Virus record (IMG/VR): IMGVR_UViG_2541047722_000016
Length of the DNA stretch: 7,864 bases
Origin: a virus
Taxonomy: Duplodnaviria; Heunggongvirae; Uroviricota; Caudoviricetes
Direction: 5' to 3' (one strand)
Part shown: positions 4,014 through 7,864 of the stretch, piece by piece
How the letters are laid out: each line of letters opens with the position of its first letter
Position numbering within the stretch: the stretch's first letter is position 1
Notes under the pieces: model-generated
The model's input: the letters and a program-made list of their open reading frames with translations, nothing else
The model's database searches: none
Told to the model about the DNA's origin: nothing
Position numbers and translations under genes: made by a program

Positions 4014-4619
4014 ATGAGCAAAGAATTTTACGCAAGACTGGCAGCTATTCAGGAGAATCTGAACGCGCCAAAGAATCAGTACAACTCATTCGGCAAATAT
4101 AAATACAGAAGCTGCGAAGATATTCTTGAAGGCGTTAAGCCGTTACTGAACGGTCTGTTTTTATCAATCAGCGATGAAGTTGTGTTGATTGGTGATCGGT
4201 ATTACGTGAAAGCCACGGCAACTATTACCGATGGCGAAAACAGTCATACGGCAACCGCTCTTGCACGAGAGGAAGAAAGCAAGAAAGGAATGGATTCTGC
4301 ACAAGTTACGGGAGCTACAAGCTCTTATGCACGCAAGTATTGCCTCAATGGTTTGTTCGGCATTGATGATGCGAAAGATGCAGATACAGACGAGCATAAA
4401 CATCAGCAGAACGCAGCAGCAAAGCAATCAAAACCATCACTTACACCTGAACAGGTTCTAAAAGCATTCACTGACGCAGCAATGCAGAAAAACACCGTAG
4501 AAGAGCTTAAACAGGCGTTCGCCAAAGCGTGGAAGATGCTCGAAGGGACGCCGGAGCAGCACAAAGCGCAGGACGTTTACAACATCAGACGAGACGAATT
4601 AGAAGGGGCAACTGCTTAA
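4014..4619 (+). CDS. erf: Erf-family single-strand annealing recombinase (P22 Erf-type)
   Basis: Internal ATG at 4014 of the track ORF (which opens at a TTG). Product MSKEFYARLAAIQENLNAPKNQYNSFGKYKYRSCEDILEGVKPLL... matches P22 Erf as I recall it. Confidence 0.85.
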   Translation: MSKEFYARLAAIQENLNAPKNQYNSFGKYKYRSCEDILEGVKPLLNGLFLSISDEVVLIGDRYYVKATATITDGENSHTATALAREEESKKGMDSAQVTGATSSYARKYCLNGLFGIDDAKDADTDEHKHQQNAAAKQSKPSLTPEQVLKAFTDAAMQKNTVEELKQAFAKAWKMLEGTPEQHKAQDVYNIRRDELEGATA

Positions 4620-5002
4620 TGGCACATTCGATTACAGTAAGACTAAACAAACCCGCAAGAGAGTTTCAGGGCGGGGAAAATATCGGATTCAACATCCGTG
4701 CTGGCGTTCAGTATTACGATCGCCAGACAAAAAAGAAAGAATGGACAAACTACAGCGCCGTTGTATTTGCCAAGCCGGGAGCGCAAGCGGATTACTATCG
4801 TAGCGTTCTGGTTGAAGGAGGCATTGTAGAAATTACCGGAGAAAACATCAGGGTTGATGTTTATCAGGGGCAAAATGGTCAATCAATCACTCTTGAATTA
4901 CTGAATGCAAAGATTGGATTTGCAACTTCAGGAAACAGCCAACAGCAGCAAAGTAGCAATCATCAAAATAATCCTGAATACGACGATTCCATCCCATTCT
5001 GA
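4619..5002 (+). CDS. SSB-like OB-fold protein with an acidic C-terminal tail
   Basis: ATG at 4619 overlaps the erf stop (TAATG). Product MAHSITVRLNKPAREFQGGENIGF... ends ...NPEYDDSIPF, which resembles the bacterial SSB C-terminal DDDIPF tail. Confidence 0.65.
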   Translation: MAHSITVRLNKPAREFQGGENIGFNIRAGVQYYDRQTKKKEWTNYSAVVFAKPGAQADYYRSVLVEGGIVEITGENIRVDVYQGQNGQSITLELLNAKIGFATSGNSQQQQSSNHQNNPEYDDSIPF

Positions 5003-5025
5003 TTTAGAAAAATAAGGATTTAATT

Positions 5026-5322
5026 ATGCCAGCGCCTTTGTATGGTGCGGATGACCCGCGCCGCTGTTCCGGCAATTCCGTATCGGAGGTGCTGGATAAA
5101 TTCAGAAAAAACTACGATCGAATAATGTCTCTACCGCAGGAAACGAAAGAGGAAAAGGAATTTCGCCACTGTATATGGCTTGCAGAGAAAGAAGAACGCG
5201 AGCGAATTTACCAGACATCAATCCGACCATTCCGCAAAGCCACATATACCCACTTCCCTGAATATATCGACCCGCGCCTGCGTAATTACCGCTCACGCTA
5301 TGGCGCTATCAGTAATGACTGA
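5026..5322 (+). CDS. abc2: Abc2-like anti-RecBCD protein (98 aa)
   Basis: AAGGA lies upstream of the ATG. The 98-aa length and the position just after erf match P22 abc2; the sequence match is recalled, not verified. Confidence 0.5.
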   Translation: MPAPLYGADDPRRCSGNSVSEVLDKFRKNYDRIMSLPQETKEEKEFRHCIWLAEKEERERIYQTSIRPFRKATYTHFPEYIDPRLRNYRSRYGAISND

Positions 5323-5416
5323 GGAATTTACCATGAGAGGACTTGCTTAAGAGAAAGAGTTTCGGTTCTGTTAATGACAACAAATATCTGAATGCGATGT
5401 GGCGGAGTGGGAAGAA

Positions 5417-5935
5417 ATGAAACAAATGTCACTAATTGAGATGGATGGTTTTCTGAAAGGTAAATGCATCCCAAGTGATTTAAAGGTTAACGAAACAAAC
5501 GCTGAATACCTTGTCCGTAAGTTCGGTGAACTTGAATCAAAACTGGAAACGGCGTTGCGGGAGTGTAGTTCTGCTGGAATCACGATTGATAACCTTGAGG
5601 CTAAATGCGCGAAGATGGCTGCTGAAAATACCTCACTTAAGCAATCTGAGAAGGAATTTAATGACTTTTGTCGTGAGGAGTTTAGCGAATGGGAAGATGA
5701 TGTTACTGAAACCCCAGCCACCGATGCTTTTCTGGCTGAAGTGCGGGCGCAGGGGGTGGATGCTGCTATAGAAGCTGCAAAAAATCTGGTGGCCCAAGAA
5801 TATGAGTATAAGGATTTCAAAGCGGCGCAGAGTGATTGCTGTATGCACCCTGGTTCAGACCTGGTAGGGAAGGTTGAAATGACTGAGTGGTTAGTTGACT
5901 TTGCTGCCCAGCTTCGCAAAGGAGGCAACCAGTGA
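5417..5935 (+). CDS. Hypothetical coiled-coil protein in the ea region (172 aa)
   Basis: ATG at 5417 inside track ORF 5399..5935 (which opens at a GTG), with GGAG about 11 nt upstream. The central part is E/K/A-rich and predicted coiled coil. Confidence 0.5.
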   Translation: MKQMSLIEMDGFLKGKCIPSDLKVNETNAEYLVRKFGELESKLETALRECSSAGITIDNLEAKCAKMAAENTSLKQSEKEFNDFCREEFSEWEDDVTETPATDAFLAEVRAQGVDAAIEAAKNLVAQEYEYKDFKAAQSDCCMHPGSDLVGKVEMTEWLVDFAAQLRKGGNQ

Positions 5936-6231
5936 CTGTATGTCTTATTGATAAACGTCGACGTGGGCAACAAATACCATCTGTTGAAATGCCGAATCAC
6001 ACATGGTTTTGCGTACTTGATATCGATGGTATGGATACGTTGGTTGACACTCGTCATTACTGCGATACCGCAACAGCTACTCCGGCGAAAGCAAAGAAAA
6101 TGGCTGCTCTGATAGAAAACTGGACTCCACCTGATGGTTGGTGCAATGGGAATGATCGAGATTGGCACGAAAAAATGAAGGGCTATATCTGCGATTTTTT
6201 ACGTAAATGCAACGGCTTCAGGGGGATGTGA
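5932..6231 (+). CDS. Hypothetical protein (99 aa), GTG start
   Basis: GTG at 5932 with GGAGG 6 nt upstream; it overlaps the preceding stop (GTGA). Several Cys residues; no family recognised. Confidence 0.5.
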   Translation: MTVCLIDKRRRGQQIPSVEMPNHTWFCVLDIDGMDTLVDTRHYCDTATATPAKAKKMAALIENWTPPDGWCNGNDRDWHEKMKGYICDFLRKCNGFRGM

Positions 6232-6232
6232 T

Positions 6233-6805
6233 ATGACCAAAATTAACTATCAGGCACTGCGTGAGGCGGCAGAACGTGCAATTCCGGCAATGGAACGCCT
6301 GTTAATGTTGCCAGTTGATGATGATTTGTTAAGTGAACAGGAACTTAAGGATTACGGTGTGGATATTGATGCGCTCAACGCCTTCAAATTTCTGACCGGA
6401 CCAGAAACCGTGCTGGCGCTGCTGGATGAACGGGAAAGAAACCAGCAATACATCAAACGCCGCGACCAGGAGAACGAGGAAATTGCGCTAACGGTAGGGA
6501 AGCTGCGCGTTGAGCTGGAAGCTGCAGAGAAGCGCATTGCAGAACTGGAAGCCGAACCTGTAAGCCAAACTTACAAGTTGAACGAGCTGTCGGGCAACTA
6601 TCCGGTAACTCCGGATGGTTGGATAAGCTGTAGTGAGCGAATGCCCGCTCAAGATGATTGGATTTTAATTTATTCAAAGCACGGCGAGTATATGGCAGGA
6701 CAGGTACAAGGGGAATACGTGGAGTTGAGCGACGGCACTTTATCGTGGTTAGGGAACGCCTTGTACTGGATGCCTCTACCGGAACCGCCGCAGGAGGTTA
6801 ATTGA
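6233..6805 (+). CDS. ead/Ea22-like protein with a DUF551-like C-terminal domain
   Basis: ATG 1 nt after the preceding stop. The N-terminus MTKINYQALREAAERA is typical of Ea22-like proteins as I recall them; a central coiled coil is followed by a C-terminal ...DGWISCSERMP...WMPLPEPP. Confidence 0.6.
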   Translation: MTKINYQALREAAERAIPAMERLLMLPVDDDLLSEQELKDYGVDIDALNAFKFLTGPETVLALLDERERNQQYIKRRDQENEEIALTVGKLRVELEAAEKRIAELEAEPVSQTYKLNELSGNYPVTPDGWISCSERMPAQDDWILIYSKHGEYMAGQVQGEYVELSDGTLSWLGNALYWMPLPEPPQEVN

Positions 6806-7089
6806 TGGTCTCCTTCGCGAAATATACGATTATTGACTGGATAGCATTCATTCAGGTTTTGCTCATCTGGTTTTATATGGCTTACAGGAGTGGACAGTGG
6901 ATTGTCAGTGTAGCCTGTAGCAATGGATGGCGTTGGTGGAACCGAAAGAATAAAAAAGCGCTGGCCTTGGCTTCGTTTTACGAAGCATTCAATCTTAACA
7001 GTCTTCAGCCTGGTTTTGTCGTTGTAGTCACCACTCAAAGCGGCATGACGATACAAATTCACAAGCCAAAGGAGGAAGGTCGTGGCTAA
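6805..7089 (+). CDS. Small putative membrane protein (94 aa)
   Basis: ATG at 6805 overlaps the preceding stop (TGATG), with GGAGG 8 nt upstream. One hydrophobic segment (IIDWIAFIQVLLIWFYMAY) near the N-terminus. Confidence 0.5.
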   Translation: MVSFAKYTIIDWIAFIQVLLIWFYMAYRSGQWIVSVACSNGWRWWNRKNKKALALASFYEAFNLNSLQPGFVVVVTTQSGMTIQIHKPKEEGRG

Positions 7090-7366
7090 CCTGCAACTTG
7101 CCGTTAAAGGTGAATACTTCGATGCCATGATTCGCGGAGAGAAAACGGAAGAGTATCGCCTGTGTAATGACTACTGGAATAAGCGAATTATGTTCCGCGA
7201 GTATGACCGCCTGATTATCACAAAGGGATATCCGAAGCGCGACGATTCCAGCCGCAGAATTGACGTCCCGTATGACGGATATGAAATCAAGACAATCACA
7301 CATCCGCACTTCGGCGATAAACCGGTAAAGGTGTTCGCTATAAAGGTGAATATCGACAATGAATGA
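7082..7366 (+). CDS. ASCH (PUA-like) domain protein, GTG start
   Basis: GTG at 7082 with GGAGG 6 nt upstream; overlaps the preceding gene by 8 nt. The product contains GEKTEEYR, fitting the ASCH G-x-K-x-x-E-x-R motif. Confidence 0.5.
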   Translation: MANLQLAVKGEYFDAMIRGEKTEEYRLCNDYWNKRIMFREYDRLIITKGYPKRDDSSRRIDVPYDGYEIKTITHPHFGDKPVKVFAIKVNIDNE

Positions 7367-7438
7367 TAATCCTCGCACTCGCGGGGATTTCTTTTATCTG
7401 AACTCGCTACGGCGGGTTTTGTTTTATGGAGATGATAA

Positions 7439-7606
7439 ATGCACTTCCGAGTCACAGGTGAATGGAATGGAGAGCCATTCAACAGAGTTATCGAAGCAGA
7501 GAACATCAACGACTGCTATGACCACTGGATGCTGTGGGCGCAGATAGCACATGCAGACGTAACTAATATTCGAATTGAAGAACTGAAAGAACACCAAGCC
7601 GCCTGA
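7439..7606 (+). CDS. Small hypothetical protein (55 aa), not in the ORF track
   Basis: ATG at 7439 with GGAG 7 nt upstream. Product MHFRVTGEWNGEPFNRVIEAENINDCYDHWMLWAQIAHADVTNIRIEELKEHQAA. The stop lies inside the terminator hairpin. Confidence 0.4.
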   Translation: MHFRVTGEWNGEPFNRVIEAENINDCYDHWMLWAQIAHADVTNIRIEELKEHQAA

Positions 7607-7620
7607 TGGCGGTTTTTTAT
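7597..7620 (+). terminator. Intrinsic terminator
   Basis: AGCCGCC-TGAT-GGCGGTT hairpin followed by TTTTTT (7613-7618). Confidence 0.6.
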
Positions 7621-7663
7621 TGCCTGATTTGCAGGTTCGATTCCCTATTCGGAGATAGCACTC

Positions 7664-7864
7664 ATGCAACACGAACTACAACCTGATTCACTGGTTGATT
7701 TGAAATTCATCATGGCCGATACTGGCTTCGGTAAAACCTTCATCTATGACCGGATTAAGTCCGGCGACCTGCCAAAAGCCAAAGTTATCCACGGGCGAGC
7801 AAGATGGTTATATCGTGACCATTGTGAATTCAAAAATAAGCTCTTAAGCCGCGCCAATGGGTAA
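7664..7864 (+). CDS. AlpA-family / excisionase-like DNA-binding protein (66 aa)
   Basis: ATG at 7664 with GGAG 9 nt upstream. The HTH-like core DLKFIMADTGFGKTFIYDRIKSGDLP is typical of AlpA/Xis-type regulators. The stop coincides with the last base of the window. Confidence 0.6.
   Translation: MQHELQPDSLVDLKFIMADTGFGKTFIYDRIKSGDLPKAKVIHGRARWLYRDHCEFKNKLLSRANG

Follow-up and report, generated by a model that had tools for sequence, protein, structure and literature searches.

Tightly packed genes in the early-left accessory region of a CUS-3-type prophage appear to be inherited one by one

Do genes that overlap end to end in a phage genome form a single unit, translated and inherited together, or are they separate pieces that share short junctions? 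The question is raised by bases 5417-7606 of a 7,864-nt stretch of viral DNA (hereafter the window), in which the original prediction had recognised a translationally coupled block of genes. These bases are the early-left accessory ("ea" or exo-xis) region of CUS-3, a P22-like E. coli prophage that is 100% identical to the window as far as base 7644; phiv205-1 is 99.9% identical to the window. The region has already been described as part of a published prophage sequence, and its genes are real, tightly packed and ordinary. What remains of interest is how such genes are joined and how they move.

The surroundings of the block are those of a lambdoid genome. All features given here lie on the + strand unless stated otherwise. 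The gene order is erf (4014-4619), an SSB-like gene, abc2 (5026-5322; PF11043, 207 bits), the six genes of the block, named g1 to g6 from left to right, and torI. Upstream, we found the lambdoid succession of cII-like, cro-like, cI, N-like (with an arginine-rich motif), cIII, erf and abc2 genes, cI being on the same strand as the block and cro divergent. The block thus sits between recombination genes and an excisionase on the strand transcribed from PL, which is the position of the lambdoid ea or exo-xis region, and it contains homologues of genes named in such regions (Orf55; Ea22, EaD and EaA; HkaH and EaE). The location first proposed for it, between a recombination module and an excision gene, was correct, with erf and abc2 on one side and the excisionase on the other. 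Its description as a variable 'ea' region, most of whose products have no known function, was also borne out. Scanning the full window for Rfam families and tRNAs gave no tRNA and a single Rfam match, to RsmY, which we reject as a chance hit (19.7 bits for a cutoff of 57, E 0.19). PADLOC returned no matches, so that no defence or anti-defence assignment is made for the block. An NCBIfam search of g1-g6 found nothing, and a PDB sequence search with g2-g5 found nothing significant.

The block holds six genes. Each of these ORFs matches a Pfam or PHROG family with E-values from 1e-21 to 1e-66, and most variable columns of the alignments are third codon positions (counts at positions 1/2/3 are 10/10/24 for g2, 7/9/16 for g4, 18/9/46 for g5 and 9/5/17 for g6). 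Just ahead of the block lies a pseudogene of hkaI, a DUF2737 gene (5333-5420), which starts at ATG 5333, encodes MRGLA, meets a stop at 5350 and continues as an out-of-frame 3' remnant. Relative to HK620 hkaI it has suffered a clean 77-nt deletion between TTGC microhomologies. The remnant covers positions 28-54 of the 54 of phrog_1117 (2.5e-14), and PGAP labels the pseudogene 'DUF2737, incomplete'. Its TGA (5418-5420) overlaps the ATG of g1 in the motif ATGA; since the DUF2737 gene is now a remnant, this former fifth overlap junction is dead.

The first gene, g1 (5417-5935, 172 aa), is HkaH-like (phrog_614, 8.8e-66) and rich in charged, helix-type sequence, with no Pfam domain passing the cutoff. 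Its identity to HkaH of HK620 is 73%, and its residues 60-113 are 64% identical to EaE of P22. CUS-3 annotates it as hkaH and PGAP agrees on the start. An earlier GTG, at 5399, is not favoured as the start, as homologues, CUS-3 and PGAP all take the ATG that overlaps the DUF2737 stop. The second gene, g2 (5932-6231, 99 aa), encodes a DUF7739 protein, matching positions 1-95 of the 98 of the Pfam model with 77.6 bits; a BFVD fold search gave no named match. The third, g3 (6233-6805, 190 aa), is itself a mosaic, with an Ead/Ea22-like N-terminal part (PF13935, 104.3 bits for a cutoff of 27) and a C-terminal DUF551 domain (PF04448, 43.5 bits for a cutoff of 22). Its first 104 residues share 53% identity with lambda Ea22; P22 EaD aligns with residues 62-123 (63% identity) and P22 EaA with residues 119-186 (43% identity). 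PGAP breaks this gene in two; the ORF is intact. A check for an internal duplication found no similarity between g1 and g3. The fourth gene, g4 (6805-7089, 94 aa), encodes a DUF4752 protein (PF15944, 114.3 bits, positions 2-84 of 84); like DUF7739 in g2, the model scores above its gathering threshold over its full length. The N-terminal helix of g4 is hydrophobic (Kyte-Doolittle mean of 1.82 in a 19-residue window, residues 8-26), and the product is probably a small membrane protein.

The last two genes are also assigned. The fifth, g5 (7082-7366, 94 aa, GTG start), belongs to phrog_625 (1.3e-51). Its match to the Pfam ASCH family (PF04266) reaches 14.3 bits for a cutoff of 21.2 and involves residues 6-28 alone, so that the sequence itself falls short of family membership. 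The AF2 model (pLDDT 83) folds as a PUA-like beta-barrel, as ASCH proteins do. Its best 15 Foldseek matches in the PDB are all ASCH-type or small uncharacterised structural-genomics proteins (PH0355, 3iuw, PF0470, ZmASCH, YqfB), the best few having probabilities of 0.9-0.98 with E-values of only 0.03-0.3 and TM-scores of 0.5-0.6. The sixth, g6 (7439-7606, 55 aa; phrog_676, 3.7e-40), is the homologue of lambda Orf55, with 98.2% identity to the lambda ORF 29121-29285. Lambda Orf55 is reported to be expressed and has been modelled as T7 Gp2-like (PMC8614690). Any function given here to the products of g1-g6 is a presumed one.

Several other ORFs compete for the same bases and were set aside. ORF 7359-7547, an alternative sixth gene, has no Pfam, PHROG or NCBIfam family and spans a conserved hairpin leader. 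The antisense ORF 7028-7378 is annotated in CUS-3 (ECRS218_0062) and matches phrog_20945 (3.8e-65). Among 38 alleles, most of its variation hits the first codon position in its own frame (46/9/18), equivalent to the third in g5, and we therefore regard it as a shadow ORF. The antisense ORFs 5371-6168 and 6670-7128 have no meaningful matches.

How are the genes joined? We read the four junctions between g1 and g5 from the sequence and then recomputed them, and all stand where they had been predicted. The TGA that closes g1 ends at 5935 and the GTG of g2 is at 5932, a 4-nt overlap (GTGA). The stop of g2 (6229-6231) is separated by 1 nt from the ATG of g3 (6233). The TGA of g3 (6803-6805) and the ATG of g4 (6805) share 1 nt (TGATG), with AGGAGG at 6792-6797. 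The GTG of g5 (7082) precedes the stop of g4 (7087-7089), for an 8-nt overlap. The two GTG starts do have the GGAGG sites ascribed to them, present as AGGAGG at 5920-5925 and 7070-7075, each 6 nt before its GTG. Hence, the gaps of -4, +1, -1 and -8 nt are as short as those of coupled operons, and the gaps of +72 nt (g5/g6) and +57 nt (g6/torI) are not. A packed block of five to six genes had been proposed; g1 to g5 indeed overlap or abut, while g6 stands 72 nt apart.

Both GTG starts are very probably genuine. At the g2 position homologues start with GTG in 45 contexts and with ATG in 16, and at the g5 position with GTG in 40 and ATG in 15. The residues just past the two starts are invariant among homologues, and in the structure models they form the first beta-strand. 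The geometry of the junctions is also kept beyond this prophage. In all 21 distinct contexts of g4 the gene starts with ATG and overlaps the upstream stop by 1 nt. The GTGA junction of g2 lies behind g1 in 23 contexts and elsewhere behind DUF2737-type proteins, whose ends (...RKGG(N/K)Q) resemble the tail of g1. The 8-nt overlap of g5 lies behind g4 in 14 contexts and, in some 25 further ones, behind DUF551-type or other proteins ending in ...QEVNRG. The records of Sf6 and CUS-3 annotate 'boundary sequences' at such junctions, e.g. bsq3, where the g3 homologue of Sf6 begins.

This arrangement might mean that g2-g5 can only be translated by ribosomes terminating on the gene upstream, which would lock the production of five proteins together. 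The overlaps would suit termination and re-initiation, and they persist next to varied partners in 46 of the 55 g5 contexts and in 53 of the 61 g2 contexts. Yet, a separate AGGAGG or GGGGG site stands 6-7 nt ahead of each downstream gene. Further, the 80-nt RNAs around the junctions fold no more strongly than shuffled ones (z = -0.47, +1.6, +0.38 and +1.0), so that masking of the ribosome-binding sites by structure, as in coupled operons, is not predicted. Finally, g1 now follows a dead pseudogene and must initiate alone. As no start site is unusually structured, obligatory coupling is unsupported, and as every gene owns a good Shine-Dalgarno site, independent initiation is equally possible. 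The conservation of the junctions could stem from shared ancestry of the junction DNA alone, without selection for coupling. What stands of the claim of translational coupling is thus the overlapping and abutting geometry; obligatory coupling we regard as conceivable and rather doubtful.

Are these genes inherited as a unit? Of 5426 complete E. coli genomes, 3860 contain pieces of the block and 113 contain at least 80% of it. Among phage records, 578 have pieces and 2 have at least 80% of the block. The number of phage records per gene varies 16-fold, from 20 (g2) to 332 (g5), and 160 related loci display more than 100 distinct gene orders. One could still imagine a single co-inherited functional module, a coupled operon whose six products cooperate in fixed stoichiometry, given that four successive junctions overlap or abut with strong Shine-Dalgarno sites, that internal promoter-like sites were not found and that the full order is kept at 100% identity in the 113 E. 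coli genomes. But these genomes, each with 80% or more of the block at a single site, add little independent evidence: the best 25 matches to the 3' end of the block plus torI are all 100% identical. Outside them, each gene is found without the others. Lambda, P22, HK620 and Sf6 all lack g4 and g5, lambda nevertheless has g6, and two terminator-like hairpins stand between g5 and g6. We consider a co-inherited module very improbable and largely refuted by the independent inheritance. The original prediction had taken the block as cohesive and had itself named independent inheritance as evidence to the contrary; this is what the synteny and count comparison reveals, and judging from these comparisons g1-g6 travel independently.

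The sixth gene forms a cassette of its own, which has terminator-like hairpins on both sides and is shared with lambda. Two hairpins with T-rich tails lie between g5 and g6, at 7368-7389 (-13.7 kcal/mol, z = -4.5) and 7400-7419 (-11 kcal/mol, z = -3.4). A third closes the block (7596-7618), as had been proposed: a stem-loop at 7596-7615 followed by T6, with 8 pairs (5 of them G-C), a UGAU loop that holds the g6 stop codon, -13 kcal/mol and z = -3.1 relative to shuffles. The three + strand sites display the rho-independent pattern of a G+C-rich hairpin and a U-tract and all fold better than shuffles. The pattern scan found 5 instances on both strands for 2.5 +/- 1.5 in shuffles, and the hairpins are pattern matches, i.e. 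predicted terminators. The same sequences are the predicted t3, t4 and t5 of lambda, in this order, which are ARNold predictions and not mapped 3' ends (Bloch et al. 2014, PMC4195576, Table 4). The 72-nt leader with its two hairpins is kept ahead of g6 whichever gene precedes it. Leader, gene and trailing hairpin remain together while both flanks vary, and in 26 distinct downstream contexts a mosaic breakpoint lies right behind the closing T-tract. The gene immediately 3' of the cassette is TorI, lambda Xis or an AlpA-like gene in about two thirds of the loci. One might speculate that the succession of terminator, orf55 and terminator is a conserved transcriptional gate for the excisionase and that Orf55 itself takes part in the decision between excision and induction, although we hold this to be unlikely. 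The cassette stands directly ahead of at least three unrelated types of recombination directionality factor (RDF), namely TorI, lambda Xis and AlpA-like proteins, in otherwise mosaic surroundings.

What lies beyond the cassette? The gene that follows (7664-7864) had been called xis. The excisionase position is right and the identity is different: the protein is 100% identical to HkaC of HK620 and gp18 of Sf6, i.e. TorI (torI/hkaC), the RDF of the KplE1/HK620/Sf6 module, and TorI is also its RefSeq name. Its role as RDF has been described (PMC2951348, PMC3509656), and transcription of int and of the RDF is uncoupled in KplE1, HK620, Sf6 and CUS-3 (PMC2951348). Between orf55 and torI, the region 7619-7657 is homologous to that of the pI ('phage integration') promoter in the feature tables of HK620 and Sf6. 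It contains a putative cII site, TTGCctgatTTGC (7620-7632), with a spacer of 5 nt instead of the 6 nt of lambda pI. The promoter ahead of torI is a putative one; should it be active, torI could be expressed by a second route. The same region includes the 16-mer TTGCAGGTTCGATTCC (7629-7644), identical to positions 47-62 of the argW tRNA, which the CUS-3 record labels 'attR core'. We reject it as the end of the prophage, because HK620 and Sf6, as free phages, carry this 16-mer too and the core CTGCAGGGGACACCAT is found beyond torI. In lysogens with the same sequence, in HK620 and in Sf6, this KplE1 core lies 74 nt past the torI stop, outside the window. In CUS-3, Int comes after attL. The arrangement is that of a KplE1/HK620-type recombination module: a TorI-type RDF, the CTGCAGGGGACACCAT core 3' of it and intS beyond the core.

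How might such a string be expressed? No sigma-70-like promoter match was found on either strand between 4900 and 7864, where shuffles give 4.2 +/- 2.2. A single transcription unit over the block is plausible. These genes, or at least orf55, could alternatively be 'morons' with promoters of their own, expressed from the repressed prophage in the host's interest: the orf55 cassette, which has terminator-like hairpins on either side and travels whole, resembles moron architecture, and homology with HK620 predicts a promoter just 3' of it, ahead of torI. This is at odds with the absence of sigma-70-like matches within 4900-7864, with an orf55 leader made of two terminators and not a promoter, and with published accounts that count orf55 and the other lambda exo-xis genes among the early genes read from pL (PMC8614690, PMC4195576). 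A moron origin of the genes is therefore quite improbable.

We think it highly likely that the block is the promoter-distal accessory part of the PL (early-left) operon in a P22-like prophage of the CUS-3 type at argW, made of independently exchangeable one-gene cassettes and not a module dedicated to several proteins acting together. This explanation starts from the gene identities, the junction geometry, the mosaic inheritance, the conserved hairpins and the torI/att arrangement, from which we infer a single PL transcript, read-through by antitermination and any re-initiation of ribosomes at the overlaps. The genes g1-g5 would be five cassettes set head to tail through short conserved junctions, each with an upstream stop, a strong Shine-Dalgarno and a downstream start. 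The junctions would act as compact translation-initiation signals, since the same ones recur elsewhere with different partners, and probably also as sites at which recombinants arise or survive. The orf55 cassette, the sixth, would be self-contained, with two hairpin terminators ahead of the gene and one behind it. After loss of the repressor, an N-like antiterminator would carry PL transcription past the string and the three terminators into torI. Excisionase would then be made only during induction, as a consequence of antiterminated read-through, and stray or unmodified transcription would end ahead of torI. With the att core past torI, and with intS under its own promoter at the other prophage end, the PL transcript would not include Int. 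N-type antitermination is presumed here, given an N-like ORF (2522-2734) that is short and aligns with the N family along no more than 43 residues.

The closest relatives of this arrangement are hkaD-hkaI of HK620, genes 19-24 of Sf6 and ECRS218_0057-0063 of CUS-3, which occupy the same place from abc2 to hkaC/torI, on the same strand and with the same tight overlaps. Sf6 gp22 is 92% identical to g2. HK620 and Sf6 also lack a full-length orf55, and hkaI is a pseudogene here. The CUS-3 record ends at 7644, hence without torI. Lambda's exo-xis region (orf60a, orf63, orf61, orf73, ea22, ea8.5, orf55) has the same operon position and shares orf55 and the three hairpins, with 93% nucleotide identity over the stretch compared (7560-7632 in the window). 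Yet, orf60a, orf63, orf61, orf73 and ea8.5 have no homologues here, and lambda lacks g1 and g2 as well as g4 and g5. The ea genes of P22 (eaE, eaF, eaD, eaI, eaA, eaG, eaC) resemble the block in position and overlapping packing; both phages belong to the same genus, Lederbergvirus. P22 shares domain-sized pieces only, g1 with EaE and g3 with EaD and EaA, and its antisense aI RNA was not found by the Rfam scan of the window. Lambda and P22 have the order xis-int-attP, whereas this prophage has its att core between RDF and int. KplE1 (CPS-53) of E. coli K-12 shares the TorI RDF and the 16-nt core CTGCAGGGGACACCAT in argW and, like this prophage, has intS at the opposite end with its own promoter. 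But KplE1 is a 10-kb remnant without immunity region, while here the module ends an intact-looking PL operon.

As a discovery this has little weight, the prophage being published and the region a textbook mosaic part of lambdoid genomes. The lineage gains clean gene calls: the GTG starts, the rejection of the antisense and alternative sixth ORFs, and the DUF2737 pseudogene. The GenBank record of CUS-3 is seen to stop at a tRNA-like 16-mer and not at the functional att core, so that it misses the excisionase. There is now a quantitative record of junctions of stop, Shine-Dalgarno and start reused as exchange points. The orf55 cassette with its three hairpins is a testable candidate for an insulator ahead of excisionase genes. 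In KplE1-type prophages the integrase has its own promoter, and a silent torI would keep the prophage stably integrated. If the cassette does act as a gate, the three hairpins would be, in these prophages, the main barrier that silences torI until N-type antitermination.

The six genes g1 (5417-5935), g2 (5932-6231), g3 (6233-6805), g4 (6805-7089), g5 (7082-7366) and g6 (7439-7606), all on the + strand, make up a mosaic ea/exo-xis region, ordinary and already described, in a published prophage. Between 5300 and 7700 the window matches the E. coli K1 prophage CUS-3 (CP000711) at 100% identity up to base 7644, where that record stops, and phage phiv205-1 at 99.9%, both being Lederbergvirus, i.e. 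P22-like. Ahead of the block, the + strand also carries a LexA-type cI repressor gene (1443-2093), an ORF whose product has an N-like arginine-rich motif (2522-2734), cIII, a gene for the Erf recombinase, another that is SSB-like, and abc2 (5026-5322), and the cro-like and cII-like genes are divergent from them. Given this layout, the early-left (PL) operon runs along the + strand, and the block is its promoter-distal part. No promoter-like site was found in 4900-7864, against 4.2 +/- 2.2 in shuffled sequences, which fits a single transcription unit. The N-like ORF is short, and its match to the N family spans only 43 residues (motif NARNRRRARRQ). The segment 1-5400 is matched in at least two pieces in several E. 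coli genomes, and in one genome the match begins only at base 259, which points to a breakpoint, from mosaicism or insertion, close to the end of the window with the replication genes (1-258).

The compact architecture that had been noted was observed as described, and its interpretation was borne out only in part. Sequence reading and recomputation both recovered all the listed junctions: a GTG at 5932 within GTGA, with a 4-nt overlap between g1 and g2 (Shine-Dalgarno AGGAGG, 5920-5925); a single base between the g2 stop (TGA, 6229-6231) and the ATG of g3 at 6233 (GGGGG, 6221-6225); a 1-nt overlap, TGATG (6803-6807), between g3 and g4 (AGGAGG, 6792-6797); and an 8-nt overlap between the GTG of g5 at 7082 and the g4 stop at 7087-7089 (AGGAGG, 7070-7075). 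A pattern scan also recovered the terminator-like hairpin closing the block (7596-7615, followed by T6), with a folding energy of -13 kcal/mol (z = -3.1). Since all six ORFs match Pfam or PHROG families and, among distinct alleles in related loci, variable columns fall mostly at codon position 3, these are genuine genes rather than chance ORFs. The GTG starts of g2 and g5 have strong comparative support. The start position of g2 is GTG in 45 and ATG in 16 distinct sequence contexts, and that of g5 GTG in 40 and ATG in 15; the residues just past it (V3, L5, D7, K8, R9 and R10 in g2; L4, A7, E11, Y12 and F13 in g5) are invariant or nearly so, they build the first beta-strand of structures predicted with confidence (pLDDT 83-84), and the family profiles align from position 1.

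The original prediction named independent inheritance as evidence against a block. Synteny comparison shows just that, as the genes do not travel together. Fragments of the block are present in 578 phage records, only 2 of which hold at least 80% of it, and in 3860 of 5426 complete E. coli genomes, with 113 reaching that coverage. By tblastn, the number of phage-collection records varies from 20 (g2) through 67 (g4) and 86 (g6) to 332 (g5, including Ralstonia and Klebsiella phages), and more than 100 distinct gene orders occur among 160 IMG/VR loci for which g5 or g2 served as anchor. Lambda, P22, HK620 and Sf6 all lack g4 and g5; lambda has g6, Sf6 has g2 and HK620 has g1.

The same junctions recur with different partner genes, and the persisting unit is thus the linker made of stop, Shine-Dalgarno and start, with the flanking genes exchanged. 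The GTGA junction of g2 is preceded by g1 in 23 contexts and elsewhere by DUF2737-type or other proteins ending in ...RKGG(N/K)Q, as g1 does. The 8-nt overlap of g5 is preceded by g4 in 14 contexts and, in about 25 others, by DUF551 or other proteins ending in ...QEVNRG. As g3 here ends in ...PPQEVN, g4, which always has a 1-nt overlap of TGATG/TAATG type, looks like an insertion between a DUF551 gene and g5. At junctions of this kind, "boundary sequences" are marked in the Sf6 and CUS-3 genome records, and bsq3 of Sf6 spans nt 1-31 of the g3 homologue. Overlap with a neighbour is virtually absent for g6 and torI (gaps of 35-158 and 57-121 nt, respectively). Translational coupling had been proposed as well, and the geometry of the g2-g5 junctions is compatible with termination-reinitiation. 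Yet each of the genes is preceded, at 6-7 nt, by a good Shine-Dalgarno site of its own, and in no case does the 80-nt junction RNA show more structure than its shuffled controls (z -0.47 to +1.6). Obligatory coupling of g2-g5 is therefore rather doubtful, and it is safer to speak of tightly packed genes, possibly with facilitated re-initiation.

The first gene must initiate independently, because it is preceded by a pseudogene. Its ATG at 5417 forms an ATGA overlap with the stop of a DUF2737/hkaI gene (5333-5420) that is inactive in the present lineage: 77 nt have been cleanly deleted between TTGC microhomologies, so that only MRGLA and a stop remain, followed by a tail in another frame. This deletion is common to the CUS-3-like subset, in which abc2 and g1 are 97 nt apart, versus about 174 nt elsewhere (tblastn layout).

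None of the six proteins has a PADLOC or NCBIfam match, and g2-g5 have none in a PDB sequence search. The g1 protein (phrog_614) is HkaH-like and in part EaE-like, with no structure lead; g3 fuses an Ead/Ea22-like N-terminus (53% to lambda Ea22) to DUF551; g4 is a DUF4752 protein with a hydrophobic N-terminal helix; g5 falls under the Pfam ASCH cutoff and has an ASCH-type fold by structure search. For lambda Ea22, one study reports a pro-lysogenic role (PMC7093339). Two annotations deserve correction. RefSeq/PGAP splits g3 (2374-2889 in L007, a lysogen with the same sequence) into a truncated or partial Ead/Ea22 pseudogene and a separate 55-aa ORF; the frame of 190 codons is intact and uninterrupted, and the split is probably spurious, the domain-mosaic protein having been compared with relatives that are longer. 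On the - strand, ORF 7028-7378 (CUS-3 CDS ECRS218_0062) was rejected as a gene, its substitution pattern marking it as a non-coding shadow of the ASCH-like g5. Since it matches a PHROG family of its own (phrog_20945, 3.8e-65), that family appears to be built from mis-annotations.

A sixth gene exists, at 7439-7606, though it does not abut g5 as the original prediction implied: a 72-nt spacer separates them. The alternative ORF 7359-7547 was discarded, having no family match in Pfam, PHROGs or NCBIfam. The g6 protein belongs to the lambda Orf55 family and is 98.2% identical to Orf55 itself, which is reportedly expressed and, from a T7 Gp2-like model, a speculative RNA polymerase modulator (PMC8614690). 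The spacer holds two + strand hairpins with T-rich tails, at 7368-7389 (-13.7 kcal/mol, z -4.5) and 7400-7419 (-11 kcal/mol, z -3.4). Their sequences and that of 7596-7615 are those of t3, t4 and t5, three terminators predicted in lambda (Bloch et al. 2014, PMC4195576, Table 4). In related loci leader, orf55 and trailing hairpin are kept together as a cassette between variable flanks, with breaks immediately 5' of the first hairpin and directly past the T-tract. In Sf6 (L005 3997-4044) the last 16 orf55 codons and the terminator hairpin remain, directly 5' of the pI/torI region; there the gene is lost, yet the cassette keeps its terminator end. The same C-terminal 25 residues are shared, at 64% identity, by P22 EaG and HK620 HkaD. 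Between this cassette and torI, about one quarter of the loci (L054, L055, L134, L140, L152 and others) carry a 114-aa gene (MSDLSMKVLKWQSTG...) with no Pfam match, a further uncharacterised cassette at the same hot spot.

An excisionase does lie downstream of the block, as predicted, but it is TorI/HkaC rather than xis: the product of the ORF at 7664-7864 shows 100% identity to its HK620 and Sf6 counterparts, and TorI is the recombination directionality factor of the KplE1-type module (PMC2951348, PMC3509656). The functional 16-nt att core, CTGCAGGGGACACCAT, lies outside the window, 74 nt beyond the torI stop, and is found in identical lysogens, HK620 and Sf6. The CUS-3 record stops at a different 16-mer, TTGCAGGTTCGATTCC (7629-7644), labelled "attR core", and therefore leaves torI out. 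We ruled this 16-mer out as the prophage end, since its presence in free HK620 and Sf6 makes it part of the phage itself. It corresponds to positions 47-62 of the argW tRNA, upstream of torI, and CTGCAGGGGACACCAT to positions 62-76, downstream of torI and 309 nt past TTGCAGGTTCGATTCC. The torI cassette seems to have cut a once continuous tRNA 3' segment in two (segments at 7629-7644 here and, in other loci, at L003 1-31, L004 4070 and 4379, and L007 3713 and 4022). HK620 has an annotated pI promoter and cII site, both of which TTGCAGGTTCGATTCC overlaps. The putative cII site, annotated there by homology, reads TTGC-N5-TTGC here (7620-7632), whereas the lambda pI site in related loci is TTGC-N6-TTGC (TTGCGTGTAATTGC). 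Activation by cII of the putative promoter in front of torI is thus uncertain.

As the core lies beyond torI, and intS follows attL at the opposite end of the prophage, read-through from PL can reach torI and not int in the prophage. Transcription of int and of the directionality factor is uncoupled in KplE1, HK620, Sf6 and CUS-3 (PMC2951348). In the likeliest proposed mechanism, once cI is lost, the N-like protein would modify polymerase at PL, and transcription would then cross the accessory cassettes and all three hairpins before entering torI. Unmodified transcription would halt at the hairpins, and the excisionase would stay off.
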